From Planctomycetota bacterium (lineage in GTDB: Bacteria > Planctomycetota > UBA11346), in NCBI GenBank assembly GCA_038213805.1, contig JBBQSO010000022.1, positions 1-64,000 on the forward strand: 64,000 nucleotides of DNA. The letters run 5' to 3'. Shown piece by piece: positions 22,625-39,652 of this stretch; position 1 is the first letter of the stretch, and each line of letters begins with the position of its first letter. The notes beneath the pieces were generated by a model, which was not told where the DNA came from, did no database searches, and saw only the letters and a program-made list of their open reading frames with translations. A program made the position numbers and the translations under genes.

Positions 22625-22656
22625 ACCGCCTGGCGGTTGGGTCCGCAGGAAATGCA

Positions 22657-22686
22657 AACGACCCGCTCCGGACGGAGCGGGTCGTT
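22657..22686. terminator. Hairpin terminator between convergent genes
   Basis: AACGACCCGCTCC-ggac-GGAGCGGGTCGTT. Confidence 0.7.
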
Positions 22687-22714
22687 CGCTTTCATCCGGG
22701 CCCGTAGTGCTGCG

Positions 22715-23302: not shown

Positions 23303-23407
23303 GATGGCTCCGATGATGGCGATGGTGGCGGCGGTTTGGGAGTAGCAGCTGAGAGGAGCAGGGGCGTGCAATCTGGGCGGGTGGCCGTGAAATGAGAAGC
23401 GGCGGAA

Positions 23408-24193
23408 CTATCCGATCGAACCCTTTTCGATCTTGAGGTCCTCGCGCAGCTCGACGCGGTCGACGGTGCCGTCCTTGATCCACAGCACGCGGTCGCTGAC
23501 CGCGAGCATCTCGTGGTCGTGGGTGGCGCTGATTATCGTCACGCCCTTCTTGATCTTGAGTTCGACGAGCAGGCGGATGATCTCGAGACCGGTCTTGGAG
23601 TCGAGGTTGGCGGTCGGCTCGTCGGCGAGGATGATCGCCGGGTCGTTCGCCAGGCTGCGCGCGATGGCGACGCGCTGCTGCTGGCCGCCGGACAGCTCGC
23701 TGGGCTTGTTGTCGAGGCGGTGGCCAATGCCGACCAGTTCGCACAATCCAGCGGCCTTGTGCCGTGCCACGTCGCCCGGCGTCCCTGCGAAGGTCATCGG
23801 CAGCATCACGTTTTCGATCGCGGTCATCACCGGGATGAGGTTGTAGCTCTGGAAGATGTAACCAATCTTGCGGCAGCGCAGCCAGGCGAGCTCGCGCGCG
23901 TCGAGTTGGGCGATGTCGACCTCGTCGATGTAGACCTGGCCCGAAGTCGGCCGGTCGAGGCCGCCGATGGCGTTGAAGAAGGTCGATTTTCCCGAGCCGG
24001 AGGGACCCATGATCGCCAGATACTCGCCGGCGTAGATCTCCATGGTCACGCCGCGCAGCGCCTGCACCGGTTCGGCATTGCCGCGCTGGTAGACCTTGCG
24101 CACATCGCGCGCGCGCACGATCACCGTGCGCTCGGAGGCATAGGCGCGGTGGCGCTCGTTGTTCTCGGGGTCCCAATAGGTCTGGTAGGTCAT
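23408..24193 (-). CDS. ABC transporter ATP-binding protein (LolD/MacB type)
   Basis: GPSGSGKST, LSGGQQQRVAIAR, ILADEPT and ATHD. Start trimmed to MTYQTY because the upstream frame is repeat-derived. Confidence 0.95.
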   Translation of the reverse strand: MTYQTYWDPENNERHRAYASERTVIVRARDVRKVYQRGNAEPVQALRGVTMEIYAGEYLAIMGPSGSGKSTFFNAIGGLDRPTSGQVYIDEVDIAQLDARELAWLRCRKIGYIFQSYNLIPVMTAIENVMLPMTFAGTPGDVARHKAAGLCELVGIGHRLDNKPSELSGGQQQRVAIARSLANDPAIILADEPTANLDSKTGLEIIRLLVELKIKKGVTIISATHDHEMLAVSDRVLWIKDGTVDRVELREDLKIEKGSIG

Positions 24194-24209
24194 GCGGCCT
24201 CCGGCCGCG

Positions 24210-24324
24210 GTCCGGAAGTCCAGAAGTCCGGAAGTCCGGAAGTCGGCGACGGAAAGCCACCCGCGATCCCGGTCAGCAGTCTGCCGTCGACTCGCGGACT
24301 TCCGAACTTCCGGACTTCCGGACT
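24210..24324. repeat. Inverted pair of GTCCGGAA tandem arrays
   Basis: About 4 units at 24210-24244 and about 4 reverse-complement units at 24295-24324. Confidence 0.85.
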
Positions 24325-24423
24325 CCAACCCGCCTCCATGCGGACTCGCCCAGTATCGGCCAAGCGGTCGATGCGAATTACGTAGCAGAGATCCATAGCA
24401 TCACTCCCAAGGGTCGGACCCGG

Positions 24424-26406
24424 TCAGAACGACAACTGGAACACCGAGGCGGAGAGGAACTTGACGCCGACCGCAAACGCGGTGGCCAGGCCGGCGCCGC
24501 ACGAGTAGCCGGCGAACAGCACCGGCGCGTAGCCGCGCCAGCGCTCGGTTCCGAAGCGGCGTTCGAGCACGTAGCGCCCGAACAGCGCGCCGACCAGCTG
24601 CAGCAGCAGGTACTGCGGGATCGAGCCGCCAAGGCCCTTGACCACGCCATAGAGCAGCAGGATGGGCAGGCCGAAGGCCGAGAGCCCGGCGTAGGTGGCC
24701 ACGCCGATGACGCCACCGGCGGCGATGATGCCGGGCTTGACCGCCTCCATGAACGGGCTGAAGCCGCCGGTGGTGGCGGTGTAGACCAGGCACTGCTGGC
24801 GCGCGTTGAGTTCCCAGAGCTGTTGCGCGTAGGGGTATTGCGGGCCCGGGATCGGACCGAGCGACCAGATGAACTGCCCATAGAGGATCGACAGCGCGAA
24901 GACCAGCGGGGTGACCACCAGGGTCATCTTCCAGATCGAGCGGAACGAGCAGCCGACGAGTTCGGCGATGCGGTAGTTGACGGTGTCCTCGCCGCCGAAG
25001 TTGCGCATCGGGATGGGCAGCAGCCAGATCTCGATGCCCTGGAAGCCGGAGAAGATGAAGGCCGCCTCGCGGATGTACGGCAGGTCGAGCGCCTGCCCGG
25101 CGAGGCCTTCCAGGCGCGCGGTGACGTAGCTGACCAACGGCGTGTAGATGAAGGCGAAGAACAGCAGCACCCACAGCAGCCGGCTGCCGCGGAAGTCCCA
25201 GTGCAGCAGGAAGCCGCACAGCAGGATGTAGAAGGTCGAGCTGGCGAGGTAGGTCAGGATGATCAGCAACGTGCGGATGTCGCCTCGCGCGCGAGAGGCG
25301 TGCGCCGGCGCCGCCACCACCGTGGCACGGTCGAAGGATGGCTCACGCCCCCGGCGCAGGGTGGCCAGCGACTGCCAGATGCCAATGCCGGCCACCGCCA
25401 GCGCCAGGCCGATGCCGAAGCTCAGGTAGAAGTCGACGCTGTTATTGTAGAGGATCTCGGTGGTGCTCATGCCCGGCTTCCAGCTGGTCAGCACGTGGTA
25501 TTTGAACAGCAGCGGATTGGCGATGCAGGTGATGAACAGGGCGAGCGCCGCGCCGACCACGCCGAAGAACGGCAGGGCCATGCCGAGGAAGAAGTTGCCG
25601 AGGTCGAAGCTGATGCCGGTCGGGGTCGCCGGCAGCAGGTCCTGGGTGGTGGTCGAGGTCTCGAGCCACGGCAGCGGCAGGATCTGAAGCGGCGCGTTCA
25701 TGCCCAGCGCCGTCGAGATCACCGGCACGCCGGCGTAGATGAAGCCGAAGACCAGGCCGAAGGCCGCGCCGATCGAGAAGCAGCGCCAGCGCCAGCCCTC
25801 GTTGCCGGTGAGGTTCTCGGACAACGCGGTGACGCCGGCTGCGCCCATCGGCGCCATCGGGAAGGGCAGCTTCTCAATGTCGCTGGTGATGCGGAACAGG
25901 CCGTAGCCCAGCACCAGGCTGTCGATGCGCCCGATCACCTGCGAGATGAACAGCAGCACGATCGGCACGAACCATTCCCACATGAAGAAGCTGCGCTTGT
26001 CGAGTACTGCCGGGTCGCTGGGCGCAAACCAGGTCGGGAAGCTGTCGGTCAGCCCGAAGCCGCGCGCCGCCTCGGACTGGACCAGGAACTGGTTCCAGAA
26101 GAAGCTCTGCATCGGGCTGCCGACCAGCGTGCCGACCATGGCGAAGAGGATGAAGATCTCGGCCGGCTTGAGCGACGAGCGCGCGCGCTTGGCGACTTCC
26201 AGGAAGAGGATCACCGTCACCCACTTGGCGGCCGGGCCGATGCCCTCGCCGATCGCCAGGCTCATGTACATCGAGGCCGGCAGCATGAGCAGGCCGACGA
26301 ACACCGCGCCGAGCAGGGTGCGCCAGCTGAAGCCGTCGTCCCAGGTGCCGGGCGCTTTGACCAGGTCGCGGTACTGCTGCAGCTCGCGGTCGGCGAGGGC
26401 GCTCAT
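24424..26406 (-). CDS. OPT-superfamily-like (oligopeptide/YSL) polytopic transporter
   Basis: Many TM helices; DGFSWRTLLGA and DIEKLPFPMA motifs; ATGA overlap with the upstream gene. Confidence 0.75.
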   Translation of the reverse strand: MSALADRELQQYRDLVKAPGTWDDGFSWRTLLGAVFVGLLMLPASMYMSLAIGEGIGPAAKWVTVILFLEVAKRARSSLKPAEIFILFAMVGTLVGSPMQSFFWNQFLVQSEAARGFGLTDSFPTWFAPSDPAVLDKRSFFMWEWFVPIVLLFISQVIGRIDSLVLGYGLFRITSDIEKLPFPMAPMGAAGVTALSENLTGNEGWRWRCFSIGAAFGLVFGFIYAGVPVISTALGMNAPLQILPLPWLETSTTTQDLLPATPTGISFDLGNFFLGMALPFFGVVGAALALFITCIANPLLFKYHVLTSWKPGMSTTEILYNNSVDFYLSFGIGLALAVAGIGIWQSLATLRRGREPSFDRATVVAAPAHASRARGDIRTLLIILTYLASSTFYILLCGFLLHWDFRGSRLLWVLLFFAFIYTPLVSYVTARLEGLAGQALDLPYIREAAFIFSGFQGIEIWLLPIPMRNFGGEDTVNYRIAELVGCSFRSIWKMTLVVTPLVFALSILYGQFIWSLGPIPGPQYPYAQQLWELNARQQCLVYTATTGGFSPFMEAVKPGIIAAGGVIGVATYAGLSAFGLPILLLYGVVKGLGGSIPQYLLLQLVGALFGRYVLERRFGTERWRGYAPVLFAGYSCGAGLATAFAVGVKFLSASVFQLSF

Positions 26407-29400
26407 GGGGCGTCTCCCACCGTCGGCAGCGCCGGCGCGGGCTCGTGCGCGGCGAGGCGCGCGCCGGCCTGCTCATCGCCGCCGGCGGCGCGGTAGCGGT
26501 CCATGGCCTCGGGCGCGAGGGTGCGCCAGACCAGGAATTGCTGGCGCAGCTGGCGCATGAAGGCGACGTTGGCGCGCCGCCACGCCGAGCGCTGGCCCGA
26601 GAGCAGTTCGAGCTCGATGCGCACCGCATAGATCGCGCCCACGTCGGTGCGCTCGGCGATCAGGGTGAAGCGTTGGCTGATACCGAGGTCGAAGGGCGCC
26701 AGCCAGGTCGTGGCGGTGACCGCGAAGCGCGGGTCGTCGATGGTCAGGAAGGCCTCTGCGGCGGTGAAGGCGCCGGTCGAGGCTTCGGTGTGGAGTTCGA
26801 GCCAGCGGCGCAGGAAGGCGAGCAGGCCGCGGATGTCGCGCGCCGCGACGGTGAAGGGGAAGGCCGCGGCGATGCTGTCGCCTTCCGGCTTGGGCAGGCG
26901 GAACTCGCCACCGCTGCCGGGATTGGCGGTGCGCGAGGCGACCAGCGCCGGGTAGAGCGCCGAGAGCAGCACCGTGGCCATGACGATGAGGATGGTCAGC
27001 ACCGCGGCGAAACTCGAGTAGTTGAGATCGGGCCGGGTGCCGAAACCGAGGTCGGCGGCGAAGCCGAGCGCCGAGACCGTGCCCTGCGCGAGCATGTAGC
27101 CGCCGATGCCGCCCAGCACCGCATAGATGCCGGCCTCAACCAGGAACAGCGCCGCGACGTGCGTCGGCGACAGCCCGAGCGAGGCGTAGATGAAGATCTC
27201 GCGGCCGCGCTCCGCCACCGAGTTGAGCATGGTCGAGAAGATCACCAGGCCACCGAGGATCAGCGGCACCAGCACCGACCCGAGCCCCGCCACCGAGATG
27301 CGGCTGACTCCGGTGAGCAGGTAGCTTTCGCCCTGGTCGCCGACGCGCAGGGTGGTCGCCACCTGCTGGGCGAGGTCATCGGCGAGCCGGGCGAGGTCGA
27401 TGGTGGAATCGCGTGGCACCAGGCTGATCGCGCGCAGCGTGCCGCCCAACCCGGCGACGGTCTCGGCGCGCGCAACCGCCACCGCCGCGGCGCCGAGGTG
27501 CACCACGGAATTGCTTTCGACGCTGGGCGCGTCGCCGCTCGCGCTGCCGGCCTGGGCCGCGGCTTGGCCTTGCTCGAGCGCCTCGAGGGCGAGCGGGGTC
27601 GGCGCCTCGCCGCCGAGCTGGGTGACGCCGGCCAGGGCGCGCACGTCGATCAACCCGGCCAGCATCTCGCGTCCGCGGAAACGCAGCTTGCCACCGGGCT
27701 GGACGCCGATGCGGCGCAAGATCTCCTCGGGCAGGAACAGCCAGTCGCCGGCGTCGCCGAAGCCCCGCGGCGTGCCGAGCGCGGCCGGGCCGCGCAGCAG
27801 CGCCGATTCGATGCCGGTGGGATCGCCCGGACGCACACCGACCACACCGGTGACCTGGCTGGAGCCACCCGGGCCGCTGAGCGGGAACTTGGGATTCTCG
27901 GCGGACGGCTGCATCCAGCGCAGCGGATAGGCGACCAGTTGCGTGCCCCAGCTCGACTCCATGCGCTCGAGGGTCGGCTCGGGCAACGCCGACCAGCCGT
28001 TGAAGCGCAGCAGTACACCCTGGTAGGGGGCCGGCGCGTCGAGGGCGATGCGCTGGGTGCCGTTGACCGGATTGAAGCCCGCGAAGGTCAGCAGGATGAA
28101 GGTCATCAGCACCACCGTCGCCGCGGTCAGCGCGGTGCGCAGCGGGCGGCGGCGCATGTTGCTGGTGCCCAGCGCGACGGTGGCGAGCAGCACGCCCAGG
28201 CGGCTGACGTCGGCACGGTGGTGGCCCTCGCCGGCCATGCGGATGGCTTCCATCTCCTGCTCGAAGCGCGCAGCGATGATGCCGATCACCCACATGCTCA
28301 TGAGGATGATGACGAAGGCGAGGAAGATGATCATCGGCGTGGTGGCGAGCGAGAACGCCGGGTGGAAGCACAGGAAGAACAGGAACACCACGGTGAAGCA
28401 GCCGGCGAAGCCCGCGACCTTGCGCACCACCGTGCCGCCGGCCAGAAACAGGCGCTCGCAGATCAGCGCGAAGGGGATGGCGAAGAACAGCAGCACGACC
28501 AGGCCGTAGACCACGTCGTTGGCGGTGGCGAGCAGGTTCGGGTAGACGCGGCTAGTCAGCGCCCAGGACGCTTGCGCCGCGCCGCTTGCTCCGGCGACGT
28601 CGCCGCGCTGCCAGGCCTGGCGCGCCAGGGTCAGCTGACGTTCGGCGGCGGCGTGCAGGGTGACCAGGCTGTCCGGCTCGATGCCGCTGCGGCGCAGCAG
28701 GGCAAGGCGCTGCTCGTCGAGGTGCCACATGTCCTCGGCGGCGTCGAGGGGGGTCAAGCGCGCGAGCGCGCCGCCGGCGTTGCGCCCGGCGTACTCGCCG
28801 GCCTTGCCGCCGGGCTCGCCGAGCAGCACCAGACGGTTGCCGACGCGGCCCTGCGAGGCGGTGACCAGCAGCGGCACGTCAGGCTCGGTGAACACCGCGA
28901 CCTGCCCGTCGGCGGCCTCACAGTGGTAGAAGTTGGGTTGGGCGTTGCGGTAGGCCGAGAGCGGCGTGACCGCGCCGAGCTCGGTGAGCAGGCGCGGGTC
29001 GAAGGCGCCATGCAGGCGGCTGGGCACGGCGCGGAACAGCAGCACCAGCTTGTCCTCGAGCTTCTGGTTGATGCCCAGCTCCAGTCCGGGGTTGGTCTTC
29101 TGCTGGCCGCCGCTGGCGATGACGTGGGTGATTGCGCCGCGCGCGTCGCAGCCGTAGATGGTCAGCGGCAGCCCGTGGCCCATGCCGGGGGAGAACTCGC
29201 TCTCGAACAGCACCTGGGCGTTGCCGGCGAGGTCGCCCCACGCGGTCTCCCACGCGCGCACGTCGCCGACCAGGTCGGAGCGCCAACCGAAGACCATGGT
29301 GCTGAGCGCGAAGGGGAAGGGCCGCCGGCCGTTCTTCGAACCGGTGGCGCGCGCCTCGACGGCGATCAGCGGCTGCTTGAAGACCAGCGTCTTGGGCTTG

Positions 29401-31442
29401 CGGTCGGCGATGTCGGGGCAGTCGATGTAGGCGCGCAGCAGCGGCAGCAGACCGGCGCACTGGTGCAGGAACGCCGCGGCGCGGAAGGCCGCGGCGGTGT
29501 CGAGCGGCGTGCCGACGCGCAGCCGCGCGTCGTTGGTGGTGGCCAGGGTCACCGCGGGCAGGAAGTTGCCGACCGCGCCGGCCTCGTGCATCCATTCGGC
29601 GGGGAAGAACGCGCCGCTGTCCGCTGGCAGCTGCTGCGGCGCCGGGTCGTAGGCGCTGTGCAGCGTGCCACCGGTGGCGAGCTTGAGCACCGCCTTGTGC
29701 AGCCAGCTGAGGTCGTTGGACCAGGTCACAAAGAAGCCGCTCGTCGCGGTCGAGAAGGCGTCGTTGCCGTCGCTGAAATCGAGGGCGACCAGGTGGATGG
29801 GGTCGAGTCTGGCCGCCAGCGCGCGCGCCGCCGCCAGGCTGCGCAGGTCGGCGGCGCGGTCGTCGACCACGCTGCGGTGGCGCGCGACCAACGCGCGCGC
29901 CGCCGGCAGCAGTTCGCCGAGCGCGCGGTCGCCGTCGGCGTCGAGGTCCTTGCCGTAGTCGAGGCGCTGCTGCAGCGAGCGCCAGCGCTGGTACACCGGC
30001 TCTTCCCTGGCGAGTTCGGTGCGGACCTGGGCGAGCGCCTCGGCGCTGCCGCCGCGGCGCAGATCGGCCTGACGCTCGCGCAGGTGGTCGACGCCCTCGA
30101 GCAGCCCGTCGGCGCGGTCGCCGGCCTCGTTGGCGAGCACCAGTTCGAGCAGCAGCTGCGCCTGGCGGCCCTGCTCTGCGGCGTCTGCGCCGGCCGGGAT
30201 GCGCTGGCGCAGGCCGTGGCGCAGCGCCGCGGCAAGGCCGGCGGTGCCCGGATCGACGGCGGCGAGGGTGTCGCCGACCAGCGTGGTGCGCGAGCGCGCG
30301 GCCTCGGCGTCGCCGAGCAGCCCACCGATGCGGCTGGTAGGCGCGAGCCCGCGGTCGGACTGGCGGTCGAGGGTCAGCGCGCCCATCAGCTGGCGCAGGC
30401 CGCGGAAGTACTCGGCGCGCCCGCCATTGAACACCACCAGCACGCTGCGCTGCGGCGGCGTCCGGGCCAGCGCGGCGGCGAGTTCGGCGAGCAGCGCGGC
30501 ATTCCACGCGCGCGTCGCGCCGGGTGTGAGGTGGTCGATCGGGCCGCCCGCTTCATAGCCGGCGGTCAACACCACCGCCTCGCGCCCGCTGCCGGTGCCG
30601 GGGATCAGCGCGACCAGCGAGGTCGCGGCGCGCGGTTCCCAGGCGACCTCGGACTGAAGCAGCGCCGGCTGGCCGTCGAGCGCCGGATCGAGATCGGCGA
30701 CGAAGCGCGGGAAGACCAGGCTCGCCGCCACGGTCTGCGCGGCGAGGTGGAAGCCGTCCATGCCGTCACTGCGCCGGAACACCACCGCCGCGGCGCCGAG
30801 CGACGCGACCGTGGTCCACCCAGCGCGCGCGTCCCCGTCGAGCACCACGATGTTGCCGGCGATAGGTTTTCCGCCGAGCTCGGGCAGGGTGCCGCGGCCC
30901 GCGAACACCAGGCGCGCCGAGATGGTGCGCCCGCCGGTGCCGGCGGTGGCGGCGTGGTTGCTCTGGTGCGGAGCGAGCACCAGGCGCTTGCCGCCGACCT
31001 CCAACCACGAGCCGCGGTCCGCCGCCACCGTCACCGTGGTGCGCACGCGCAGCGGCGCCAGGCCGGCGGCTTGCAAGCGCTGTTCAAGCAGGCCCAGCGC
31101 CCGCTCGGCGCCAGGCGTGCCCATGGTGCGGTCGGGAATGGCGATCAGGGTCTCGGCGAGGGTGCGGATGGCATTGGGGTCGAGATCGGCTTCCGCGGCG
31201 GCCAGGTGCAGGGGGAGCAGGGACACCATGGACACGAGGAAGAGGGTGCGAAGTGCGGAGTGCGGGGTGCGGAGTGACCGTCGCGCGGCAACGCATGCGC
31301 TCAGCCCGGATTCGGCGGGACGTGAGGGGGCGGTGGTGACGGAGTCGTACAGACACTCCGCACTCCGCACTCCGCACTCCGCACCTGCGAAACGGGGTTC
31401 CCCCATGCACCGACCAACATCACCAGGTTGACGCAGGCTCAT
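26403..31442 (-). CDS. Giant PA/M28-peptidase-like plus FtsX-type ABC permease fusion
   Basis: PA-like ARLVFAGRG..GNIVVL; M28-like AVVLTAGYE..PGA..LAELA..PQRSVLVVF; NMRRRPLRTALT and MLNSVAERGREI..ASLG (FtsX/MacB). Start is either 31442 (ATGA-coupled) or ~31229. Confidence 0.8.
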   Translation of the reverse strand: MSLRQPGDVGRCMGEPRFAGAECGVRSAECLYDSVTTAPSRPAESGLSACVAARRSLRTPHSALRTLFLVSMVSLLPLHLAAAEADLDPNAIRTLAETLIAIPDRTMGTPGAERALGLLEQRLQAAGLAPLRVRTTVTVAADRGSWLEVGGKRLVLAPHQSNHAATAGTGGRTISARLVFAGRGTLPELGGKPIAGNIVVLDGDARAGWTTVASLGAAAVVFRRSDGMDGFHLAAQTVAASLVFPRFVADLDPALDGQPALLQSEVAWEPRAATSLVALIPGTGSGREAVVLTAGYEAGGPIDHLTPGATRAWNAALLAELAAALARTPPQRSVLVVFNGGRAEYFRGLRQLMGALTLDRQSDRGLAPTSRIGGLLGDAEAARSRTTLVGDTLAAVDPGTAGLAAALRHGLRQRIPAGADAAEQGRQAQLLLELVLANEAGDRADGLLEGVDHLRERQADLRRGGSAEALAQVRTELAREEPVYQRWRSLQQRLDYGKDLDADGDRALGELLPAARALVARHRSVVDDRAADLRSLAAARALAARLDPIHLVALDFSDGNDAFSTATSGFFVTWSNDLSWLHKAVLKLATGGTLHSAYDPAPQQLPADSGAFFPAEWMHEAGAVGNFLPAVTLATTNDARLRVGTPLDTAAAFRAAAFLHQCAGLLPLLRAYIDCPDIADRKPKTLVFKQPLIAVEARATGSKNGRRPFPFALSTMVFGWRSDLVGDVRAWETAWGDLAGNAQVLFESEFSPGMGHGLPLTIYGCDARGAITHVIASGGQQKTNPGLELGINQKLEDKLVLLFRAVPSRLHGAFDPRLLTELGAVTPLSAYRNAQPNFYHCEAADGQVAVFTEPDVPLLVTASQGRVGNRLVLLGEPGGKAGEYAGRNAGGALARLTPLDAAEDMWHLDEQRLALLRRSGIEPDSLVTLHAAAERQLTLARQAWQRGDVAGASGAAQASWALTSRVYPNLLATANDVVYGLVVLLFFAIPFALICERLFLAGGTVVRKVAGFAGCFTVVFLFFLCFHPAFSLATTPMIIFLAFVIILMSMWVIGIIAARFEQEMEAIRMAGEGHHRADVSRLGVLLATVALGTSNMRRRPLRTALTAATVVLMTFILLTFAGFNPVNGTQRIALDAPAPYQGVLLRFNGWSALPEPTLERMESSWGTQLVAYPLRWMQPSAENPKFPLSGPGGSSQVTGVVGVRPGDPTGIESALLRGPAALGTPRGFGDAGDWLFLPEEILRRIGVQPGGKLRFRGREMLAGLIDVRALAGVTQLGGEAPTPLALEALEQGQAAAQAGSASGDAPSVESNSVVHLGAAAVAVARAETVAGLGGTLRAISLVPRDSTIDLARLADDLAQQVATTLRVGDQGESYLLTGVSRISVAGLGSVLVPLILGGLVIFSTMLNSVAERGREIFIYASLGLSPTHVAALFLVEAGIYAVLGGIGGYMLAQGTVSALGFAADLGFGTRPDLNYSSFAAVLTILIVMATVLLSALYPALVASRTANPGSGGEFRLPKPEGDSIAAAFPFTVAARDIRGLLAFLRRWLELHTEASTGAFTAAEAFLTIDDPRFAVTATTWLAPFDLGISQRFTLIAERTDVGAIYAVRIELELLSGQRSAWRRANVAFMRQLRQQFLVWRTLAPEAMDRYRAAGGDEQAGARLAAHEPAPALPTVGDAP
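31246..31384. repeat. Inverted pair of GTGCGGA 7-mer tandem arrays inside the 5' end of the giant ORF
   Basis: About 4 GTGCGGA units at 31246-31276 and 4 CACTCCG units at 31354-31384. Confidence 0.85.
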
Positions 31443-33244
31443 GCGTCAACCCGCATCGCTTCGATCGGATGCATGCGCGCCGCCACCAGCGCAGGCAGCA
31501 GGGCACCGAGGATGGCCAGGGTCAGCCCGGCGACCATGCCGGCGACGCACGCGGCGACGAGGTCGGCGACCGGCAGGGTCGCCCAGAACACCGCGCCGAA
31601 GCGCGTCGCGGCCTGCAGCAGCACCAGCGCGAGGCCGAGGACCACGCCGAGCAGCGATCCGGCCACACCCATCGCCGCGGACTCGATGAGGAAGGCCTTG
31701 ACGATGAACGAGTCGAGCGCGCCCAGGCACTTCATGGTCGCGATCTCGCGAAACCGTTCAGTGACCGCCATCATCATGGTGTTGACGATGCCGACCACGC
31801 ACACCAGCAGCGACAGCACCACCAGCCACACCGTGCGGCCGCCGCCCGGCGTGCCGCGCCCGCCAGAGAACGTGCGCGCCAGATCCTCAAGCTCGGCGCG
31901 GCGCAGCAGCTCGGCACGCAGTTCGGCGGTGCCGTCCGGCCCCAGCGCGGCGGTGACCAGCGCGCGTGTGCGCAGGGCGGTAGCGTCGGGATGGAGCGCG
32001 GCGAGCTGGCGCAGGTCCAACGCCTCGAGCGCCGGCTGCCCGGTCAGCGCGGGGGCGAGCGCATGCTCGAGCAGCACGCGGTTGAGGCGCGTCAGCCGGC
32101 GCTCGGCCATGCGCGCGAGGTTCTGTTTGAGCAGCAGCAGCGCCTCGGTGGGCAGCGTCTCCTGCCGCCACGCCTCCTCGTCGTAGAGTTCGGGGCGAGC
32201 CAGTTCGCGGTTGAGCGCGGCGAGGAGTTCGCCTTGGGCGGCTGGCTCGTGGGCCAGGCGCGCAGGGTCGGGCGGATGGATGCCATCGGTGGCGAAGAGC
32301 AGTTCGAGGCGGACGAGCAGGCGGTTGCCCGGCCAGACGCGGGCCAGCGCCGCCCAGTCGGCGATGTCCTGGCTGCGCAGCAGCGAAGGGTCGTTGCGGT
32401 TGGCCTCGGCGAGCACCGCCGCGGCGCGCGTACGCAGGCGTTCGATGCGGATCTGCTCGCGCAGCGCGGCGGCCTGCGCGGCGTCCTGACCCGGCAGCGC
32501 CTCGTCGAGGGGCAGACCGGCCTCGCGCAGGTCGCCGGGCGAGGTACCGCGCTGCACCTGGTCGAGCACCGCCTCGACCCCGCCGGCCGCGGCAACGCGC
32601 GCCAGACGCGCCGGTTCAGCGAGCCGCAGCGCTTCGACCGCTGCGGCTATGCCCGGGGCGTGCCGCGACAGCGTGATCAGCTCGTCGCGCGCCAACGGCA
32701 GGCGCTGACCGGTGAAGCCCGCGGCACTCGCGATCAGCTCGTCGACCGCGGCCGGCGAATCGACGTGCAGCGCCCAGTCCGCGAGCTCGCGATTGCGCGT
32801 CAGCAGGTAGGCGTGGGTGGGCTTGAGCGCGGCCGCCCATGCGATCAGGCGCACCGCGGTCTGCGCGGTACCTGGCGGGATGGCGTCGGGCGCCGCGACC
32901 GCGGGCGCGGGCGTGCGCGCCACCAGGCGCAGCAGGTCGGCGACGTTGCGCGGACGCGCCAGCATCTCGCGCAGCAGCGCCAACTGTTCGCCCGGCAGGC
33001 TGTGCGCGCGCCAGCGGCGGTAGACGGTGGCCTCGGTCAGGCCCTGGCCGAGCACCGCGAGCAGGAATGCCACCGCCAGTACCACCGACGAGATGCTGAC
33101 CAGGCTGCGCACTAGGCGCACGCGGATCGAGCGCCACGCGACCTGTGCGGCGACGCTCAGCGGCAACACGCGCGGCGGCCCGATCTGTGCCCGCTGGCGG
33201 GCGCTTGAGGTGGTGCCGGATGGCTGCGGGAGCGCCCTGGTCAT
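31439..33244 (-). CDS. FtsX/MacB-type ABC permease
   Basis: AWRSIRVRLVRS..TM, VGIVNTMMMAVTERFREIATMKCLGA and AARMHPIEAMR. Confidence 0.9.
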   Translation of the reverse strand: MTRALPQPSGTTSSARQRAQIGPPRVLPLSVAAQVAWRSIRVRLVRSLVSISSVVLAVAFLLAVLGQGLTEATVYRRWRAHSLPGEQLALLREMLARPRNVADLLRLVARTPAPAVAAPDAIPPGTAQTAVRLIAWAAALKPTHAYLLTRNRELADWALHVDSPAAVDELIASAAGFTGQRLPLARDELITLSRHAPGIAAAVEALRLAEPARLARVAAAGGVEAVLDQVQRGTSPGDLREAGLPLDEALPGQDAAQAAALREQIRIERLRTRAAAVLAEANRNDPSLLRSQDIADWAALARVWPGNRLLVRLELLFATDGIHPPDPARLAHEPAAQGELLAALNRELARPELYDEEAWRQETLPTEALLLLKQNLARMAERRLTRLNRVLLEHALAPALTGQPALEALDLRQLAALHPDATALRTRALVTAALGPDGTAELRAELLRRAELEDLARTFSGGRGTPGGGRTVWLVVLSLLVCVVGIVNTMMMAVTERFREIATMKCLGALDSFIVKAFLIESAAMGVAGSLLGVVLGLALVLLQAATRFGAVFWATLPVADLVAACVAGMVAGLTLAILGALLPALVAARMHPIEAMRVDA

Positions 33245-33600
33245 GGCGGGACCAGGCGCAGCAGGTGCCGGCGTTCGAGCAGGCGCAGGAAGTCGGCGAG
33301 CGCGACGCGCGCCTCGCGGCGGGTCAAGCGCAGGTGGCCGGCGAGGTCGCCGGCGAGGTCCTCAAAGTCGCGGCCGTCGCAGCGCGTGACCACGAAGGTG
33401 CCGAGCTCGTCAAGCTCGACCTCGATGCGTTCAGGCAGGCGCAGCCAGCGCGCGACCATGCGGTGCACCGCGCCGCGCCGGAACGGCTCCCCACGCAGGC
33501 GCACAAGCCCGCCGTCGAGCCGCTGCAGCTCGACCCCTGGAATCAGCCGCGGGATGCCCGGGGCGGGTGCACCGGGCATGCTGGCGGAGGGCGCGACCAT
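33241..33600 (-). CDS. PqqD-family (RRE-like) small protein
   Basis: VELDELGTFVVTRCDGR..DL...LAGH..LTRREA..ALADFL..LERRHLL winged-helix pattern. Confidence 0.7.
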   Translation of the reverse strand: MVAPSASMPGAPAPGIPRLIPGVELQRLDGGLVRLRGEPFRRGAVHRMVARWLRLPERIEVELDELGTFVVTRCDGRDFEDLAGDLAGHLRLTRREARVALADFLRLLERRHLLRLVPP

Positions 33601-33604
33601 GGAG

Positions 33605-34480
33605 CTAACTTCTTGAGGGGACGGCACTCCGCAAGCACATCACCGGGGTCCCGGTGCCGTACCATTCCTGCAAGACCAGGCGCTCTCCACCCGTTTCCAG
33701 CCAGGTGTGGAAGCTGCGTCCCTCGCTGCCGCCGGTCAGGCGCCGTAGCCAGCCGTGCGCCGGGCGCCGGGTGCGCACGGCGGTGACCCCGTCGGAGACT
33801 CCGCTGCCAACCACGCTTTCGCGCCGGCCGAGCTGGTCCGTGATCCACGCAGCCGGGGTACGCCCGGCCAGCACCCGCTCCGCGCAGGCGTAGCGGCGCA
33901 CCACCAGTGCCCCGGCGATGCGGTCGAGGCGCCCCTGCGGATGGTGCAGGAACAGCGCCCGGACCAGACCGGCCAGCTGCTGCACGCCCTCAAGCCGCCA
34001 CCAGGGCGGCAGCTCAAGGTCGAGACCGTAGATGCGCAGCGGGGTCGCCTGGCCGTCGCGACGGGCCCAGGCGCCAGCCACGGCCGCATGCGTCGCGGCC
34101 ACGCCGGCGGGGGCCAGGGCGCGAACCACCAGGGTCACGCCCGCGCCTGCCGGCCTTCCGTCGCTGTCGGGCAGCCAGCGTACGCCACCGCACAGTTCGC
34201 CCGCCGGGGCCGACCAACGTGCCAGCAGGCCCCCGGTGATGGCGCTGCACGCGCGGCGCTCGCCGCAACCCAGCTCGCGGCGCATGCGCCGCTCCAGCGC
34301 CTCAAGCACACGCGGCGCCTCTACCATGGCAGTTTCGCGCGCCCAACCGACGGCGAGCAGGGGCGGGCCGTCCGCGGCTGCGATCAGAGCCTGACCACGC
34401 CGCCAGCCGCCGGCAGTGCCTACCGCCTCCCAGCCCGCCGGCAGGGGGCAGCCGATGCCGTGCAGAGCGACGCCGTTCAC
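33605..34480 (-). CDS. Hypothetical protein with internal repeat (HGIGCPLPAGW / YGLDLELPPWW)
   Basis: Fills the gap in a tight operon; GTG start 7 nt after the upstream stop. Confidence 0.65.
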   Translation of the reverse strand: MNGVALHGIGCPLPAGWEAVGTAGGWRRGQALIAAADGPPLLAVGWARETAMVEAPRVLEALERRMRRELGCGERRACSAITGGLLARWSAPAGELCGGVRWLPDSDGRPAGAGVTLVVRALAPAGVAATHAAVAGAWARRDGQATPLRIYGLDLELPPWWRLEGVQQLAGLVRALFLHHPQGRLDRIAGALVVRRYACAERVLAGRTPAAWITDQLGRRESVVGSGVSDGVTAVRTRRPAHGWLRRLTGGSEGRSFHTWLETGGERLVLQEWYGTGTPVMCLRSAVPSRS

Positions 34481-34487
34481 CTGCGGC

Positions 34488-36728
34488 TCAGCGGGGCAGG
34501 AACGAGGGGTGGGTCGCGAAGTCGACGCCGCACAGGTGCAGCAGAATGGTCAGAACCATGAAGAGCACGCTGGCCAAGGCCTCGCCCACGATCAGCCCGA
34601 TGGCGAGCGGGCGCATGCGCTGATAGAGCTGCGGGCCGCCATAGCGCAGGACCAGGCACTTGGCGGACCAGCCAACCAGTACGCTGAACCAGTTCAGCCA
34701 GGTCGGGTAGCAGCTTGCGACGACGTAGCCGAGCGGGTGCAGCGGCCAGGCGGAGAACAGCATGCGCCCGATGCCGAGCACCGCGGTGATCCCGGCGCCC
34801 AGTCCGTAGCTCGGCCAGACCTCGGCCGTCGGCACACCGCTCGAGCCGTTGGCGAGCGGCTTAAGATTGTGTTCGAGCAGCGTGTAGTGCGGCCATGGGT
34901 CGGCGGGGTGCTCGCCGCCATAATAAATGACCAGCATGGCCGCGCCGCTGAGGAGCGCGCCGACCACCACCACGACGAACAGCACGGCGCTGCCCGCCAG
35001 ACGCGGCGTGCCGGCGCGCTGGCCGAGGTATTCCGCCTGGACACCGAAGGCCAGCAGGTTCTCGCGCGTGTCGCCCATCAACCCCGTGCCGATCAGCAGC
35101 AGCGGGGCGAGCGCCGCCAGCGGCAGGTGGAAGCCGGTGATGGAGAACACCACCTTGCTCAGGAAGTAGCCGGTGGGGATCTGCAGGAAGGGCAGCCCGG
35201 CTTCGGCGACCACGCGCGCCAGCACCAGCAGGAAGCCGAGGAAGATCAGCACGGTGAGCAGCGCGTGGTACCACAGCGCGCCGTTCAGGACCAGCGTCGC
35301 GGCCATCGCGGCGATGCCCGCCAGCAGCAGCCAGACGTAGGGCGCGACCTCGCGCAGCGCCGGGTCGCCACTGCGCAGCAGCGCCATGCGCAGCACCTGG
35401 AGGTAGTACCGTCGGCCGACCCACATGATGAGCAGGCACTGCACCGCAAATCCGCCGACGCCGGTGCTGGAGACCTGGTCGTCGGTGACCGGCACGCCCT
35501 GCGCGCGCAGCAGCCCGACGCCCGCCACCGTCGCCACGAAGAAGAACCACAGGCTGAAACCGAGGTCGAGGGGCAGGAAGAAGGCCAGTCCCGCGACCGA
35601 GAACCACAGCACCAGGTCGGTGATCGCCCAGCCTGCGTAGACGTCGTCGAAGGCGTGCTGGCCGAAGACCGTGCGGAAGTCCAGGTGCGTGGGGATCGCG
35701 ACCGGCAGCATTCCCCAGGTTTTAAGGCCCTGGGTGATCAGCACCGTCCCGGCGATGGCGAGGCCGACCCAGAACAGGCGCGCGCGGAACAACGGCGCGA
35801 GACGTTGGCCGGGATCGGGATCAGCAACGATGGCGAGCAGCACATTGGCGATCGGGTAGGGCAGGCGCTCGTGGTCGATCCACTGCCGGCGCACCAGGGC
35901 GGCGAGGGCGAGGCAGCAGACGAAGGCGCCGAGCAGGATCGGCAGCCAGTGCAGCAGCGGGCCCGCCCACGCGTCCCACGGCACGCCGGCGAGCGCGCTG
36001 CGTTCCACCGTCAGCACCCGCACCCGACCGGTCGGGGTCTCGACCTCGTCGCCGGCATGGTGCCCGGCGAGCAGCCGGCCCGGCGGCACGTCGAGGTCGA
36101 GCACGTCGTCACCGCCGCCCACCGCCAGGGCGCCGGTGCAGGCGGTGGCGCGGTGCGTGACGCCGTCGAGGGTGCGCCAGGCGACCACGGTGCGGTGGCC
36201 AACGGCCAGGTCGCCCCGCACCAGGCCGTTGTTGAATCCGTCGACCACGTAGCGGTACTCGGCGTCGTCACTGCGGATCGGGCCGTGCTCGGGCAGGCCG
36301 ACAAAGAAACGCGTGGGCAGCACCACGTCGCCGTTCGCCGGGGCCAGCGGCGCCAGCTCCGGGGTCGAGGTCAGCAGCTTGGCCGGTCCAGCGATGACCT
36401 GCGCAAAGAAGCGGTTGAGGCCAGAGGACACCACCCCGCCCAGGACCAGCAGCATGCCGGTGATCACCGCCAGCTCGCCCAGGCGCAGGCGGCGCGCGCC
36501 GAGCAGCGGATTGACGCCCAGGGCCAGCACCAGCACCAGCAGGGTCACGCCGGGCGGCATGAAATGGCAGTACAGGTACGAGCTGGTGTACTGCCAGTCG
36601 TTGTAGGGCGTCGCCAGCGCAAAAGTAACCACCGCGAGCGCCCCGATGGCGATGGCGCGCGGGGTCAGCGACGGACCACTGGCCGGCGGCGGAAGGCGAT
36701 CGCTCACCGGTCGGTCGTCCCGATTCAT
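34488..36728 (-). CDS. DUF6785/DUF6784-like polytopic membrane protein, paralog B
   Basis: LTPRAIAIG, LVRRQWIDHERLPYP, RVVAEAG, WPLHPLGY and RYGG..LY..PLAIGLIVGE. Start MNRDD overlaps the upstream stop (ATGA). Confidence 0.8.
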   Translation of the reverse strand: MNRDDRPVSDRLPPPASGPSLTPRAIAIGALAVVTFALATPYNDWQYTSSYLYCHFMPPGVTLLVLVLALGVNPLLGARRLRLGELAVITGMLLVLGGVVSSGLNRFFAQVIAGPAKLLTSTPELAPLAPANGDVVLPTRFFVGLPEHGPIRSDDAEYRYVVDGFNNGLVRGDLAVGHRTVVAWRTLDGVTHRATACTGALAVGGGDDVLDLDVPPGRLLAGHHAGDEVETPTGRVRVLTVERSALAGVPWDAWAGPLLHWLPILLGAFVCCLALAALVRRQWIDHERLPYPIANVLLAIVADPDPGQRLAPLFRARLFWVGLAIAGTVLITQGLKTWGMLPVAIPTHLDFRTVFGQHAFDDVYAGWAITDLVLWFSVAGLAFFLPLDLGFSLWFFFVATVAGVGLLRAQGVPVTDDQVSSTGVGGFAVQCLLIMWVGRRYYLQVLRMALLRSGDPALREVAPYVWLLLAGIAAMAATLVLNGALWYHALLTVLIFLGFLLVLARVVAEAGLPFLQIPTGYFLSKVVFSITGFHLPLAALAPLLLIGTGLMGDTRENLLAFGVQAEYLGQRAGTPRLAGSAVLFVVVVVGALLSGAAMLVIYYGGEHPADPWPHYTLLEHNLKPLANGSSGVPTAEVWPSYGLGAGITAVLGIGRMLFSAWPLHPLGYVVASCYPTWLNWFSVLVGWSAKCLVLRYGGPQLYQRMRPLAIGLIVGEALASVLFMVLTILLHLCGVDFATHPSFLPR

Positions 36729-38929
36729 AGCGGCAGGAAGCTCACGTGCCGCGGGAAGTCGATGCCGCACCAGTGCAGCACCGCGGCGAGCAGCATGAAC
36801 AGCCCGGCGGCCGCGGCCTCGGCGGCGATCAGGCCCATCGCCACCGGCTTGAGCCGCTGGTAGAGCTGCGGCCCGCCATAGCGCGTGACCAGCAGCTTGG
36901 CCATCCACGCGAGCAGGAAACTGAACCAGATCGCCTGGGTCGGCCCGGTCATGCTCACCAGATAGCCGATCGGGTGGAGCGGCCACCACGACAGGAACAT
37001 GCGGCAGATGCCCAGCACCGCGACCAGGGCAGCGCCCAGGCCATAGCACGGCCAGGTGCCGGGCGCGACGCCGGCACCGCTCGCAGAGCCGGTCGCGAGC
37101 GGCATCAGCCCCTGCTCGACCAGGGTCGCGTACCACGCGCGGTCGACCTGGCCGTCGCGCCGGTAGTCGGCTGAGATCAGCGTCATCATCGCCGCCAGCG
37201 AGCCGACCACCAGGATGGCGAGCAGCAGCGACGTCCAGCGCAGGCGCTTGGCCACGGTGTTCTGCACCAGCGTGCGCTTGACCAGGTATTCGCTGTCGAC
37301 CGCGTAGGGGAGGAGATTCTCACGGCTGTTGCCGAGCAGCGTGGCGCCGAGCAGGGTCAGCGGCGCGAGCGCGGCGAGCGGCGCGCCGAAACCCACTACC
37401 GAGAACAGCACCTGGCTGAGGTGGCAACCGGCGGGCAGGCCGATGGCGGGGATGCCGGCCTCGGCCACCACCCGCGCCAGTACCAGCACGAAGCCGAGGA
37501 ACAGCAGCACCGCGACCAGCGCGTGGTGCGGCTGCGCACCAAGCGCGACCAGCCACAGCGCCATGGTCAGGACGCCGCCGAGCAGCATCCATACGTAGGG
37601 CACCAGCAGGCGCTCGTGCTCATCGCCGCTGCGGCGGAAGGCGGCGCGCAGCAGTCCCAGGTAGTGGCGCCGCCCGATCCACAGGATGAGCAGGCATTCT
37701 ACCGCGAAACCACCGACCCCGACCTTGCCGGCGTCGTCGTACGCGACCGGGCGGCCCTGGGTGCGCAGCAGCAGATACACGAGATTGGTGGCGACGAAGA
37801 AGAACCACAGGCTGAAGCTCAGGTCGAGCGGCAGGAAGAAGGCCAGCCCGACGATGCTGAAATAGACGGTGACGCGGAACAGCGCCCAGTGGGTGTAGAC
37901 CTGGTACCAGGGCTCGCTCGCGAACGCGTCGCGGAAGTCGAAGGTCGTCGACACCGACATCGGCAGCAGTCCCCAGGTCTCCAGGCCCTGGCTGATCAGC
38001 ACCACCGCCACCACCGCGAAGCCCAGCCAGAAGCCGCGCGCGCGGAAGATCGGCGCGAGCCGCGTGCCCGGCTCGGGCGGGGCCATGAAATCGAGGGTGA
38101 CGTTGGCGAGCGGGAAGGGCAGGCGTTCGTGGTCGATCCACTGCCGGCGCACCAGCGCTGAGATCGCCAGGCAGGCGGCGAAGGCGCCGAGCAGCAGCGG
38201 CAGCCACGCCAGGTAGGGCTGCCACCACGCTCGCCACGGCACGGACGGCGGGATCACCGCGAGGATGTGCAGCGGGCCGCCCACCGTGGCCACCGTGTCG
38301 CCGACGTGGTGTCCGAGCAGGGCAAGTCCCGGCTGGATTCCGAGATCCAGGCAGCCCGGCATCTCGCCAGCGCGCCGGCCGGCCAGGGCCAGGGCGGTGC
38401 GCTCGCTGCCGTCGGCCAGGCGCCAGGTCACGGTGGCGCGGTGGCCGACCACCGGCACGCCCTGGGGCAGACCGTTGTGGAAGCCATCGATGACCAGGCG
38501 GTGGTCGGCATCGTTGGGGTCGGGCGGGCCGTGATCGGGCAGGTCGACGAACACCCGGCGCGGCATCAGCAGCTCGCCGTTGCCCAGGAAGGGTGCCAGG
38601 CCCGGCTCCGCCGGCAGCACCCGCGCCGGCCCGGCCATCACCCCGGGCAGCAGGCGGGTCAGACCGCTCGAGGCCACCCCGCCCAGCACCAGCAGCATGC
38701 TGACGATGACCGTCATCTCGCCGCTGCGCAGGCGGCGCTCGCCGAGCAGGGGGTTGACCACCAGTCCCATCAGCAGCACCAGCACGGTGACGCCCAGCGG
38801 CAGGTAGTGGTTGTAGATCGGCGTGTTGCCCAGCGCCCAGTCGTTCAGCGGTGCGACCACCGCCATCATCGCCGAGGCGATCAGCCCGATGATCACCGAG
38901 CGTGCCGTCAGCAATCTGCTGAAGGTCAT
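36725..38929 (-). CDS. DUF6785/DUF6784-like polytopic membrane protein, paralog A
   Basis: Collinear with paralog B (RRQWIDHERLPFP, RVVAEAG, WPLHPIGY, RYGG). Confidence 0.8.
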   Translation of the reverse strand: MTFSRLLTARSVIIGLIASAMMAVVAPLNDWALGNTPIYNHYLPLGVTVLVLLMGLVVNPLLGERRLRSGEMTVIVSMLLVLGGVASSGLTRLLPGVMAGPARVLPAEPGLAPFLGNGELLMPRRVFVDLPDHGPPDPNDADHRLVIDGFHNGLPQGVPVVGHRATVTWRLADGSERTALALAGRRAGEMPGCLDLGIQPGLALLGHHVGDTVATVGGPLHILAVIPPSVPWRAWWQPYLAWLPLLLGAFAACLAISALVRRQWIDHERLPFPLANVTLDFMAPPEPGTRLAPIFRARGFWLGFAVVAVVLISQGLETWGLLPMSVSTTFDFRDAFASEPWYQVYTHWALFRVTVYFSIVGLAFFLPLDLSFSLWFFFVATNLVYLLLRTQGRPVAYDDAGKVGVGGFAVECLLILWIGRRHYLGLLRAAFRRSGDEHERLLVPYVWMLLGGVLTMALWLVALGAQPHHALVAVLLFLGFVLVLARVVAEAGIPAIGLPAGCHLSQVLFSVVGFGAPLAALAPLTLLGATLLGNSRENLLPYAVDSEYLVKRTLVQNTVAKRLRWTSLLLAILVVGSLAAMMTLISADYRRDGQVDRAWYATLVEQGLMPLATGSASGAGVAPGTWPCYGLGAALVAVLGICRMFLSWWPLHPIGYLVSMTGPTQAIWFSFLLAWMAKLLVTRYGGPQLYQRLKPVAMGLIAAEAAAAGLFMLLAAVLHWCGIDFPRHVSFLPL

Positions 38930-39142
38930 GGTCGGTCCGCCGGGCATCATGCGGGCATCCCGTCACCACGACGCAGGCGGCATCCGGACCCCCGGTGGGG
39001 CCTGCGTGCGGGGGGCTGGGGAAGGACCGGCATCAAGCCCTGTTTGTGGTGCTGCCGGTGCCCAAAGGCAAGGCTCAAGGCGTCGGGTGTGGGGTGTCTG
39101 GAGCGGCCGGCCGGGGCGCTGCCAGTGTTGCCCAAATGGGCG

Positions 39143-39172
39143 TTGACGCGAGCCGGCCGCTGGGCGTATGCT
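39143..39172 (+). promoter_or_regulatory. Sigma70-like promoter for hpf
   Basis: TTGACG-18 nt-TATGCT, about 105 nt upstream of the start. Confidence 0.55.
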
Positions 39173-39278
39173 CGGCCCAGGACTCCCCTGAGTCGTATCC
39201 ATCCGGCCGCAGGCAGGGGCACTCGGCCATAGCCAACTGGGCCCTCCAGCGCGAGGACCACGATCGAGGAGCGTCAAC

Positions 39279-39593: not shown

Positions 39594-39622
39594 GCCCAGG
39601 CCTAAAAACCTGCTGGATCTCC

Positions 39623-39652
39623 GCCCCCTGGCCGTTGGCCAGGGGGCTTTTT
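39623..39652 (+). terminator. Intrinsic terminator after hpf
   Basis: GCCCCCTGGCC-gtt-GGCCAGGGGGC-TTTTT. Confidence 0.85.

Follow-up and report, generated by a model that had tools for sequence, protein, structure and literature searches.

What kind of system is encoded where genes for an ATP-binding cassette (ABC) motor, peptide-transporter-like membrane proteins, and a putative peptide binder run together in one operon? The question is raised by the first 64,000 nucleotides (nt) of contig JBBQSO010000022.1 (assembly GCA_038213805.1) from a Planctomycetota bacterium, a stretch referred to here, at its full length, as the window. Eight co-directional minus-strand open reading frames (ORFs), designated g1 to g8 in the direction of transcription, occupy positions 23408 to 38950. 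They encode two DUF6785/DUF6784 membrane proteins (g1 and g2), a protein with two Mog1/PsbP-like domains (g3), a small PqqD/RRE-like protein (g4), two FtsX-type permeases (g5 and the giant g6), a divergent OPT-family membrane protein (g7), and a LolD/MacB-type ABC ATPase (g8). We argue that the operon very probably specifies one inner-membrane machine, a reading drawn from gene order, co-inheritance, and sequence relationships. The best explanation as a whole, to which we assign a probability of roughly 0.4, is that this single machine uses ATP to assist the uptake of peptide-like oligomers. Such a machine would join a type VII ABC motor to OPT-fold proteins in a composite that is widespread and apparently unstudied.

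Co-inheritance of the gene set

The initial annotation had treated the eight minus-strand genes as a coupled unit on the strength of four ATGA overlaps and two gaps of 4 to 7 nt, all of which are read directly in the sequence. The overlaps fall at g1/g2, g4/g5, g5/g6, and g6/g7; g2 and g3 lie 7 nt apart, and the gap between g3 and g4 is 4 nt provided that g4 starts at the ATG at 33600. At the last junction, g7 and g8 are separated by ~230 nt because a hairpin resembling a repetitive extragenic palindromic (REP) element is inserted there. This hairpin is missing from the same junction in a 98%-identical relative (locus L065), where the spacer is ~35 nt, and the ancestral operon was therefore tight throughout.

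Conservation beyond the window was traced from g7, whose alignment, used in a pattern scan, returned at least 587 relatives in species-representative genomes; the best 80 loci by g7 similarity were examined. These loci are phylogenetically clustered and mainly from Desulfobacterota, with other lineages represented by Planctomycetota (including a metagenome-assembled genome [MAG] of Kuenenia), Verrucomicrobiia, and one Acidobacteriota MAG. Forty-nine of them include at least 9.5 kb of sequence 5' of g7; here DUF6785 is found in 48, g6 in 48, g5 in 47, the ATPase in 47, and all four in 47. Of the two exceptions, L107 is devoid of all four, and L116 has neither g5 nor the ATPase. On the other side, g3 and g4 are both present in 26 of the 41 loci that extend at least 9 kb 3' of g7. 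Synteny spans Desulfobacterota, Planctomycetota, Verrucomicrobiota, and Acidobacteriota, and seven families (DUF6785, g3, g4, g5, g6, g7, and the ATPase) are kept together across phyla.

Gene order varies within this common set. In Desulfobacterota the order is g5-ATPase-g6-DUF6785-g7, followed by an exported protein of ~207 amino acids (aa), g3, and g4. The family of that exported protein, which carries a signal peptide and a conserved C-terminal PR or PK ending, is seen between g7 and g3 in Desulfobacterota only (35 hidden Markov model [HMM] matches in 34 loci; e.g., L069:12249-12872 and L126:13515-14135), and it has no counterpart in the window. In a genome of the same genus as the window's (G142), g3-g4-g5-g6-g7-g8 lie behind the same upstream neighbor and a DUF6785 gene is found on another contig, so linkage of the DUF6785 genes to the core operon is not obligatory. 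The window itself represents a variant whose operon begins with two DUF6785 paralogues.

For a test at the genome level, the same 301 genomes of the window's phylum were searched for each family. DUF6785 (over the Pfam cutoff) was detected in 45 genomes and the g7 family in 45, with both in 44 and neither in 255; that is, 44 of the 46 genomes holding either family hold both. The two single-family genomes are G100 (89% complete; DUF6785 only) and G006 (g7 family only). The g3 family is present in 39 of the 301 genomes, every one of which also has DUF6785, and none of the 255 genomes with neither family has it; it was also found in five of five genomes of other lineages, adjoining g4 even when unlinked from the core. 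DUF6785, the g7 family, and g3 are all undetected in two same-genus genomes (86% and 89% complete), and the system is therefore accessory. Some genomes of the phylum (G289, G162, G101, G072, and others) carry multiple DUF6785 and g7-family copies, with up to 20 DUF6785 candidates at first look, which suggests that they hold paralogous sets of the machine.

The two cytoplasmic genes travel as a pair. An HMM iterated from Desulfobacterota sequences retrieves g3 (E = 1.2e-42) and g4 (E = 6.6e-28) of the window, and g4 always lies directly 3' of g3, including where the pair is far from the core cluster. In one Verrucomicrobiia MAG, a single 435-aa ORF (L081:7376-8683, plus strand) is recognized by the models of both families, g3 at E = 5.5e-57 and PqqD at E = 8.9e-33; either the two genes are naturally fused here, or the assembly contains a frameshift. 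Together, the ATGA overlaps, the four partners in 47 of 49 loci, the co-occurrence in 44 genomes, the restriction of g3 to this set, and the fused L081 ORF argue for a single unit. The genes clearly co-occur in other genomes, and the earlier description of them as one coupled unit holds.

Composition of the proposed machine

Two FtsX permeases and an ABC ATPase had been proposed to form a type VII-like ABC system, and profile searches agree with this assignment. Pfam FtsX (PF02687) matches g5 at residues 474 to 593 (E = 9.9e-15) and g6 at residues 1392 to 1504 (E = 1.8e-9), and ABC_tran matches g8 (E = 7.9e-34), with LolD, MacB, and FtsE as the nearest named relatives. In NCBIfam, g5 comes closest to LolC/E, MacB, and FtsX, in each case far under the curated cutoff (49.2 bits for the LolC/E equivalog, for which the cutoff is 362.45). 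For g8, the best matches there are LolD (TIGR02211; 216 bits against a cutoff of 307.75), the N-terminal part of MacB (E = 8.5e-63), FtsE, and DevA; g8 homologues align from residue ~47 onward. Hydropathy places hydrophobic segments of g5 at residues 48 to 66 and 474 to 580, and the loop between the first and second transmembrane (TM) helices of the FtsX unit would measure ~400 aa in g5 and ~260 aa in g6. Homologues of g5 in Desulfobacterota are only 216 to 260 aa long, with a loop of ~50 aa; the large g5 loop is therefore dispensable. The MacB periplasmic core domain (Pfam MacB_PCD) has no match in g5 or g6.

The membrane part of g6 has sequence matches in the Protein Data Bank (PDB) to YtrF, MacB, LolF, and LolC, and its homologues are annotated as ABC transporter permeases or as hypothetical proteins. 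Hydropathy gives a signal or anchor at residues 63 to 81, three helices at 977 to 1056, one helix at 1105 to 1123, and three helices at 1385 to 1496. The first three-helix cluster contains D, P, F, H, and E residues that are invariant across 16 sequences. It was considered as a second FtsX unit and rejected, since hhalign gave a probability of 0.13% against the true FtsX unit. The window contains one ATPase gene, as do the Desulfobacterota loci. Because g5 and g6 have one FtsX unit each and a single ATPase gene accompanies them, g5, g6, and two copies of g8 would form a type VII ABC heteromer like LolC/LolE/LolD, and the two FtsX proteins more likely belong to one such heteromer than to two systems.

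A PADLOC model, CARF_m8--CARF_LolE_TM (PDLC01991), aligns with g6 residues 932 to 1546 (E = 2.8e-39; profile positions 30 to 593 of 810). The CARF sensor part of the model is unmatched, and PADLOC otherwise returned only generic ATPase-model matches of g8; with matches limited in this way, a known defense system was rejected. In type III CRISPR-associated proteins, the g6 membrane module seems to be joined to CARF sensors. The domain that follows the membrane core in g6 differs from CARF and is conserved.

The outer part of g6 was recognized by fold. No HMM, including Peptidase_M28, matches this part of the window protein; the ESM Atlas pointed to M28/PA (0.94), and fold comparison found the M28 alpha/beta fold with an inserted PA domain. 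Among 15 homologues of g6, Pfam Peptidase_M28 matches 11 and PA matches 4. The aligned M28 range covers residues 1 to 593 of the head model, which makes the long helices at residues 287 to 458 (~170 aa) an insertion within the M28 fold. We took the metal and catalytic motif positions of M28 to be H-x-D, G-A-x-D, E-E, D, and H, and scored their loss in a sequence alignment rather than on superposed structures. The E-E motif is missing in all 15 aligned sequences and the first His is kept in 3 of 15; window g6 reads GYEA, PGAT, and GRAE at the motif columns and has no His at the last site, so that all motif sites are lost. Because the metal site is missing, the outer domain would be a catalytically dead peptidase and may serve as a binding head. 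A pseudo-peptidase had been listed among the components; the dead M28-like module is borne out, not as a separate gene but as the outer domain of the permease g6.

The cytoplasmic C-terminal domain of g6 contains 16 invariant columns and gave no Pfam match and no usable ESM Atlas match. A profile search with it retrieved 1592 cluster representatives at E ≤ 0.001 (1430 at ≤ 1e-10) among 1.84 billion, and in long proteins the domain always lies at the extreme C terminus.

The OPT-related proteins fall into two families. Both g1 (PF20581, E = 2.5e-69, 234.5 bits; PF20580, E = 9.1e-24, 84 bits) and g2 (PF20581, E = 1.4e-64, 218.9 bits; PF20580, E = 1.4e-24, 86.6 bits) exceed the respective Pfam cutoffs of 25 and 26.4 bits. 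The match in g1 is split by an insert of ~135 aa, the two proteins are 53% identical (391/732), and they are the sole DUF6785 genes in the 5.5-Mb assembly. For g7 there is no Pfam match even at E ≤ 1. Its assignment to OPT comes from relatives that match PF03169 (6 of 16 family members; best E = 6.8e-12) rather than from g7 itself; relatives also carry the source annotation "peptide transporter," and g7 is 46 to 50% identical to most of the listed copies in other phyla. The claim of an OPT transporter with two DUF6785-like proteins thus stands directly for g1 and g2, and for g7 through its relatives only. The DUF6785 and g7-family alignments are themselves related (hhalign probability 89.4%, E = 2e-6, 140 columns), with the match centered on a common ERLPFP motif (E-[KR]-L-P-F-P). 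Searched against PDB sequences, the g7-family profile gave no matches and the DUF6785 profile gave chance matches only (E > 0.5). "Three OPT-like proteins" is a reasonable label for g1, g2, and g7 on this indirect, sequence-based evidence. No fused form of g7 was found among proteins of 1156 to 3300 aa, which is weak evidence.

The pair g3-g4 would form the cytoplasmic part. No family in Pfam or NCBIfam matches g3. Its predicted model (predicted local distance difference test score, 86.3; predicted template modeling score, 0.82) consists of two Mog1/PsbP-like domains, an alpha/beta sandwich fold also found in the chaperone-like proteins SciW and DcrB, and the best two-domain Foldseek matches are TplEi/Tli4 proteins. 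Since just two prolines, and no polar residues, are invariant among 36 sequences, we read g3 as a putative binding adaptor rather than an enzyme. The initial identification of g4 as PqqD-like is supported by Pfam PqqD (PF05402), which g4 matches at 28.0 bits against a cutoff of 23.4 (E = 2.9e-6), with homologues reaching E = 2.4e-9. In some Desulfobacterota (L069:14304-18246, minus strand; L146:9989-11539, plus strand; and similar loci), partner-switching and signaling genes are found beside the pair. In Desulfobacterales, g3-g4 adjoin genes for a STAS protein, an RsbW-like HATPase_c_2 protein, a cNMP-binding protein, and an 838-aa ABC exporter. In Halodesulfovibrio, where the pair is unlinked from the core, it adjoins a MASE10-SpoIIE phosphatase.

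Operon boundaries and flanking features

The coordinates of the genes, of the g6 domains, and of the two noncoding elements are collected in Table 1. The start of the operon is marked by a divergent spacer of ~330 nt 5' of g1, on the far side of which a plus-strand gene (39279-39593) diverges; read by eye, its product is probably a ribosome-hibernation-factor-like protein. The same plus-strand neighbor (76% identity) sits 5' of g3 in the same-genus genome G142 (locus L143). A strong terminator-like hairpin follows this gene at 39623-39647, with 11 pairs and then a T run.

Table 1. Features of the g1-g8 operon in window coordinates
Feature	Position	Strand	Description	Basis
g1	36725-38950 (or ATG 38929)	-	741 aa; DUF6785/DUF6784 polytopic membrane protein, distant OPT relative	
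g2	34488-36728	-	746 aa; second DUF6785/DUF6784 protein, tandem paralogue of g1	
g3	33605-34480	-	291 aa; two tandem Mog1/PsbP-like domains, cytoplasmic	
g4	33241-33627 (or ATG 33600)	-	128 aa (119 aa from ATG 33600); small PqqD/RRE-like protein	
g5	31439-33244	-	601 aa; single-unit FtsX-type permease, outer loop ~400 aa	
g6	26403-31442	-	1679 aa; giant permease with signal/anchor, PA/M28-fold outer domain, three-helix cluster, one FtsX unit, and C-terminal cytoplasmic domain	
g6 residues ~85-680	29403-31190	-	PA + M28-fold pseudo-peptidase outer domain, split by long helical insert	
g6 residues 977-1056	28275-28514	-	conserved three-helix membrane cluster, non-FtsX	hydropathy, conservation
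g6 residues 1105-1505	26928-28130	-	single FtsX unit (TM, ~260-aa outer loop, three TMs)	Pfam, hydropathy, PDB sequence matches
g6 residues 1505-1679	26406-26930	-	conserved cytoplasmic C-terminal domain (175 aa)	found only in g6 family
g7	24424-26406	-	660 aa; divergent OPT-family polytopic membrane protein	
g8	23408-24328; probable start ATG 24193 (23408-24193)	-	LolD/MacB-type ABC ATPase	
REP-like hairpin	24194-24423	-	insertion at the g7-g8 junction; outside the machine	
Divergent intergenic region	38951-39278	.	presumed operon promoter region	read from sequence

In the REP-like hairpin between g7 and g8, four CGGAAGTC octamers face four GACTTCCG octamers, and the spacer RNA folds at -129.7 kcal/mol (z = -6.3). 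A 15-base REP probe allowing at most one mismatch found 263 + 269 matches in the 5.5-Mb assembly against 1 + 1 for a control. The element is dispersed genome-wide and consists of tandem CGGAAGTC octamers set against their own reverse complement in a hairpin of ~30 bp. No Rfam match was found within window positions 22000 to 40000.

At the 3' end, a 218-aa ORF (22715-23371, minus strand) begins 36 nt 3' of g8 and is 84% identical in the close relative L065. It was rejected as a ninth member, since it has no Pfam match and is unmatched by the HMM of the ~207-aa exported family; it lies outside the cross-phylum gene set. Farther out are two plus-strand genes, one for a 1072-aa protein (16886-20104) that contains glucose/sorbosone dehydrogenase and He_PIG domains and gives weak heme-motif matches, the other for a nitrite/sulfite reductase (20867-22624); in other genomes neither gene accompanies the operon.

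Proposed mechanism, alternatives, and relation to known systems

In the mechanism that we propose, g5 and g6, with one FtsX unit each, and two copies of g8 would assemble a type VII heteromer of the LolC/LolE/LolD kind. The periplasmic head of g6 (~900 aa), which follows the domain plan of the transferrin receptor and GCPII (PA, M28 fold, and helical domain), would serve for binding. Beside the motor we place g7, from the OPT family, and the OPT-related DUF6785 proteins, possibly touching the three-helix cluster of g6; tandem Mog1/PsbP-like g3 and the PqqD-like peptide binder g4 would dock on the cytoplasmic face. ATP hydrolysis would move the head, which would capture a peptide-like oligomer in the periplasm and pass it to the OPT-fold permeases for proton-driven import, after which g3-g4 may take the cargo or gate the process. 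The inward direction is suggested because characterized OPT/YSL proteins are importers, no export parts and no precursor ORF are conserved, and g3 has no catalytic residues. By analogy with these importers, ATP-assisted uptake of peptide-like oligomers is a tentative assignment, somewhat less likely than not.

Several points weigh against this proposal. The 80 loci are the best g7 matches and come mostly from related Desulfobacterota, so the counts overstate independence. The link between DUF6785 and OPT amounts to just 89% hhalign probability over 140 columns, and neither profile matches a solved OPT structure by sequence. In same-family genomes DUF6785 is found at separate loci, so these proteins are not necessarily subunits in fixed stoichiometry. 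The known type VII ABC systems serve mostly to expel, extract, or activate, and we know of none that feeds an importer. Finally, the best-known role of PqqD-like RRE domains is to bind precursor peptides in the cytoplasm before their export, and this agrees better with an outward direction.

Export is the first alternative, and we consider it rather unlikely. Here g3-g4 would bind a cytoplasmic peptide or an unfolded segment, an OPT-fold protein would take it through the inner membrane, and the tall-headed ABC motor would expel it or place it in the envelope, in the manner of the MacB-type pumps for darobactin, bacteriocins, and enterotoxin. The PqqD/RRE fold of g4 and the fold that g3 shares with chaperone-like SciW and DcrB are consistent with such a role; g8 also scores well against darobactin- and bacteriocin-export ATPase models, and type VII ABC systems typically act outward. 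However, the accompaniments of peptide export are missing from the conserved set. No conserved small ORF of 25 to 110 aa outside the known genes was found in the 80 loci, where the recurrent small-ORF clusters were all frame shadows of known genes or a STAS protein, and the conserved families include no modifying enzyme. A B12-binding radical SAM gene lies between g7 and the 207-aa gene at one locus only among those scanned with Pfam (L126:11954-13450, plus strand). A cluster for ribosomally synthesized and posttranslationally modified peptides (RiPPs) was accordingly rejected, as there is no conserved precursor ORF, no conserved enzyme, and no invariant polar residue in g3; the initial annotation had likewise seen no RiPP precursor or radical SAM gene, and the wider scan extends that observation to conserved genes.

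The machinery of envelope-spanning efflux is equally absent. Pfam detects no HlyD-type membrane-fusion gene among the eight genes, nor is one found among the seven conserved families, and the sole HlyD gene seen belongs to a separate MacB-like system at L049. With no membrane-fusion or TolC-like outer-channel gene in the conserved set, a tripartite efflux pump was rejected. Two further points count against export: g7 is ~48% identical across phyla, unusual for a secondary-metabolite exporter, and to our knowledge no characterized OPT family member is an exporter.

Also unlikely, in our view, is a mechanotransducer that transports nothing. As with FtsEX-EnvC, LolCDE, or BceAB, the motor would extract a lipid-anchored molecule or remodel or sense the wall, with g3-g4 in a regulatory role and each OPT-fold protein acting as a scaffold, a sensor, or a flippase-like partner. 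The LolC/LolE-like heteromer logic agrees with this alternative, and the dead-enzyme head resembles the regulatory, noncatalytic partners of FtsEX. In Desulfobacterota, the STAS protein, RsbW-like kinase, and SpoIIE-type phosphatase beside g3-g4 suggest regulation, and the match to CARF_LolE_TM implies that the g6 core occurs elsewhere as a regulated membrane effector. The patchy spread of the system (~15% of the sampled genomes of the phylum, and none found in the two same-genus genomes) speaks against a core envelope function, however, and the strict retention of two different OPT-related families suggests a real transport step. The last alternative is that the genes adjoin one another by chance, or that an OPT importer, an ABC exporter, and a PqqD pair, as two or three independent systems, merely lie side by side in this genome. 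DUF6785 and g3-g4 are indeed unlinked from the g5-g8 core in some genomes, but the shared presence of both families in 44 of 46 genomes, the confinement of g3 to the set, and synteny across four phyla make such an explanation highly improbable.

ATP-assisted uptake by a single machine is our preferred reading. Whether the operon represents a composite transporter class is a bolder and more doubtful proposition: a type VII mechanotransducer with a transferrin-receptor-like head would be physically coupled to OPT-fold permeases, so that periplasmic ATP-driven capture and proton-driven translocation work as one machine, with a PsbP-like/PqqD-like receiving pair, in many bacterial phyla. If coupling were proven, a new class would be possible. 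Much of envelope biology turns on type VII ABC systems (Lol, MacB, FtsEX, and Bce), and every time the role of a partner has been worked out, another mechanism has come to light. In this operon such a motor is strictly co-inherited with two OPT-fold families and carries a receptor-like dead peptidase. The OPT family is almost unstudied in prokaryotes. The spread of the machine is wide, with a g7 relative in at least 587 species-level genomes and the g6-specific domain in ~1,400 sequence clusters. Carriers include cultured sulfate reducers such as Halodesulfovibrio aestuarii DSM 17919 (L076), and the function is therefore open to genetics. Solving it would give roles to DUF6785/DUF6784, a large orphan OPT branch, and a new PqqD partner, and might reveal a route of nutrient or metal acquisition in anaerobes and Planctomycetes-Verrucomicrobia-Chlamydiae (PVC)-group bacteria.

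Among the matches listed in full-text searches, which did not cover subscription journals, none describes DUF6785/DUF6784 or this gene combination, in keeping with the initial statement that the architecture has no characterized counterpart. Parts of it do resemble known systems. LolCDE is similar in having two different single-unit FtsX-type permeases and one LolD-like ATPase gene, and LolC/E and LolD are the best NCBIfam matches of g5 and g8. The scores nevertheless fall far under the cutoffs (49 against 362 bits and 216 against 308 bits), g6 adds a ~900-aa outer head, three extra helices, and a novel C-terminal domain, and the operon has OPT-fold and cytoplasmic partners and no LolA/LolB context. 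With MacAB-TolC, DevCBA, and the darobactin system DarBCD, it shares the FtsX domain, the ATPase family, and PDB sequence matches to MacB. Unlike these exporters, it has no conserved fusion protein or outer channel, its ATPase is not fused to a permease, and the MacB core domain is undetected. FtsEX-EnvC and YbbAP-TesA likewise combine a type VII ABC motor with nontransporter partners and a catalytically inactive periplasmic module, whereas here the permease itself carries the dead-enzyme module, and polytopic OPT-fold proteins are the partners.

The remaining components have counterparts of their own. Similarity to OPT/YSL (PF03169) appears in the six of 16 g7-family members that match and in the distant relationship of DUF6785 to the g7 family, although window g7 is under every Pfam threshold; we know of no characterized OPT protein that works with an ABC motor, and the full-text searches returned none. 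In g4, the PqqD/RRE relationship exceeds the Pfam cutoff, but no precursor, radical SAM, protease, or cyclodehydratase partner is conserved. With its two Mog1/PsbP-like domains, g3 resembles the Mog1/PsbP-fold adaptors Tli4/TplEi, a group that also includes DcrB and SciW; as far as the full-text searches reach, its pairing with g4 is undescribed. The head of g6 shares an M28 core, an inserted PA domain, and a helical part with the transferrin receptor, GCPII, and the PA-M28 aminopeptidases (BSAP and PaAP), and, like the transferrin receptor, it has no catalytic site. It differs from all of these proteins in being fused to an ABC permease and in holding a ~170-aa helical segment inside its M28 fold.

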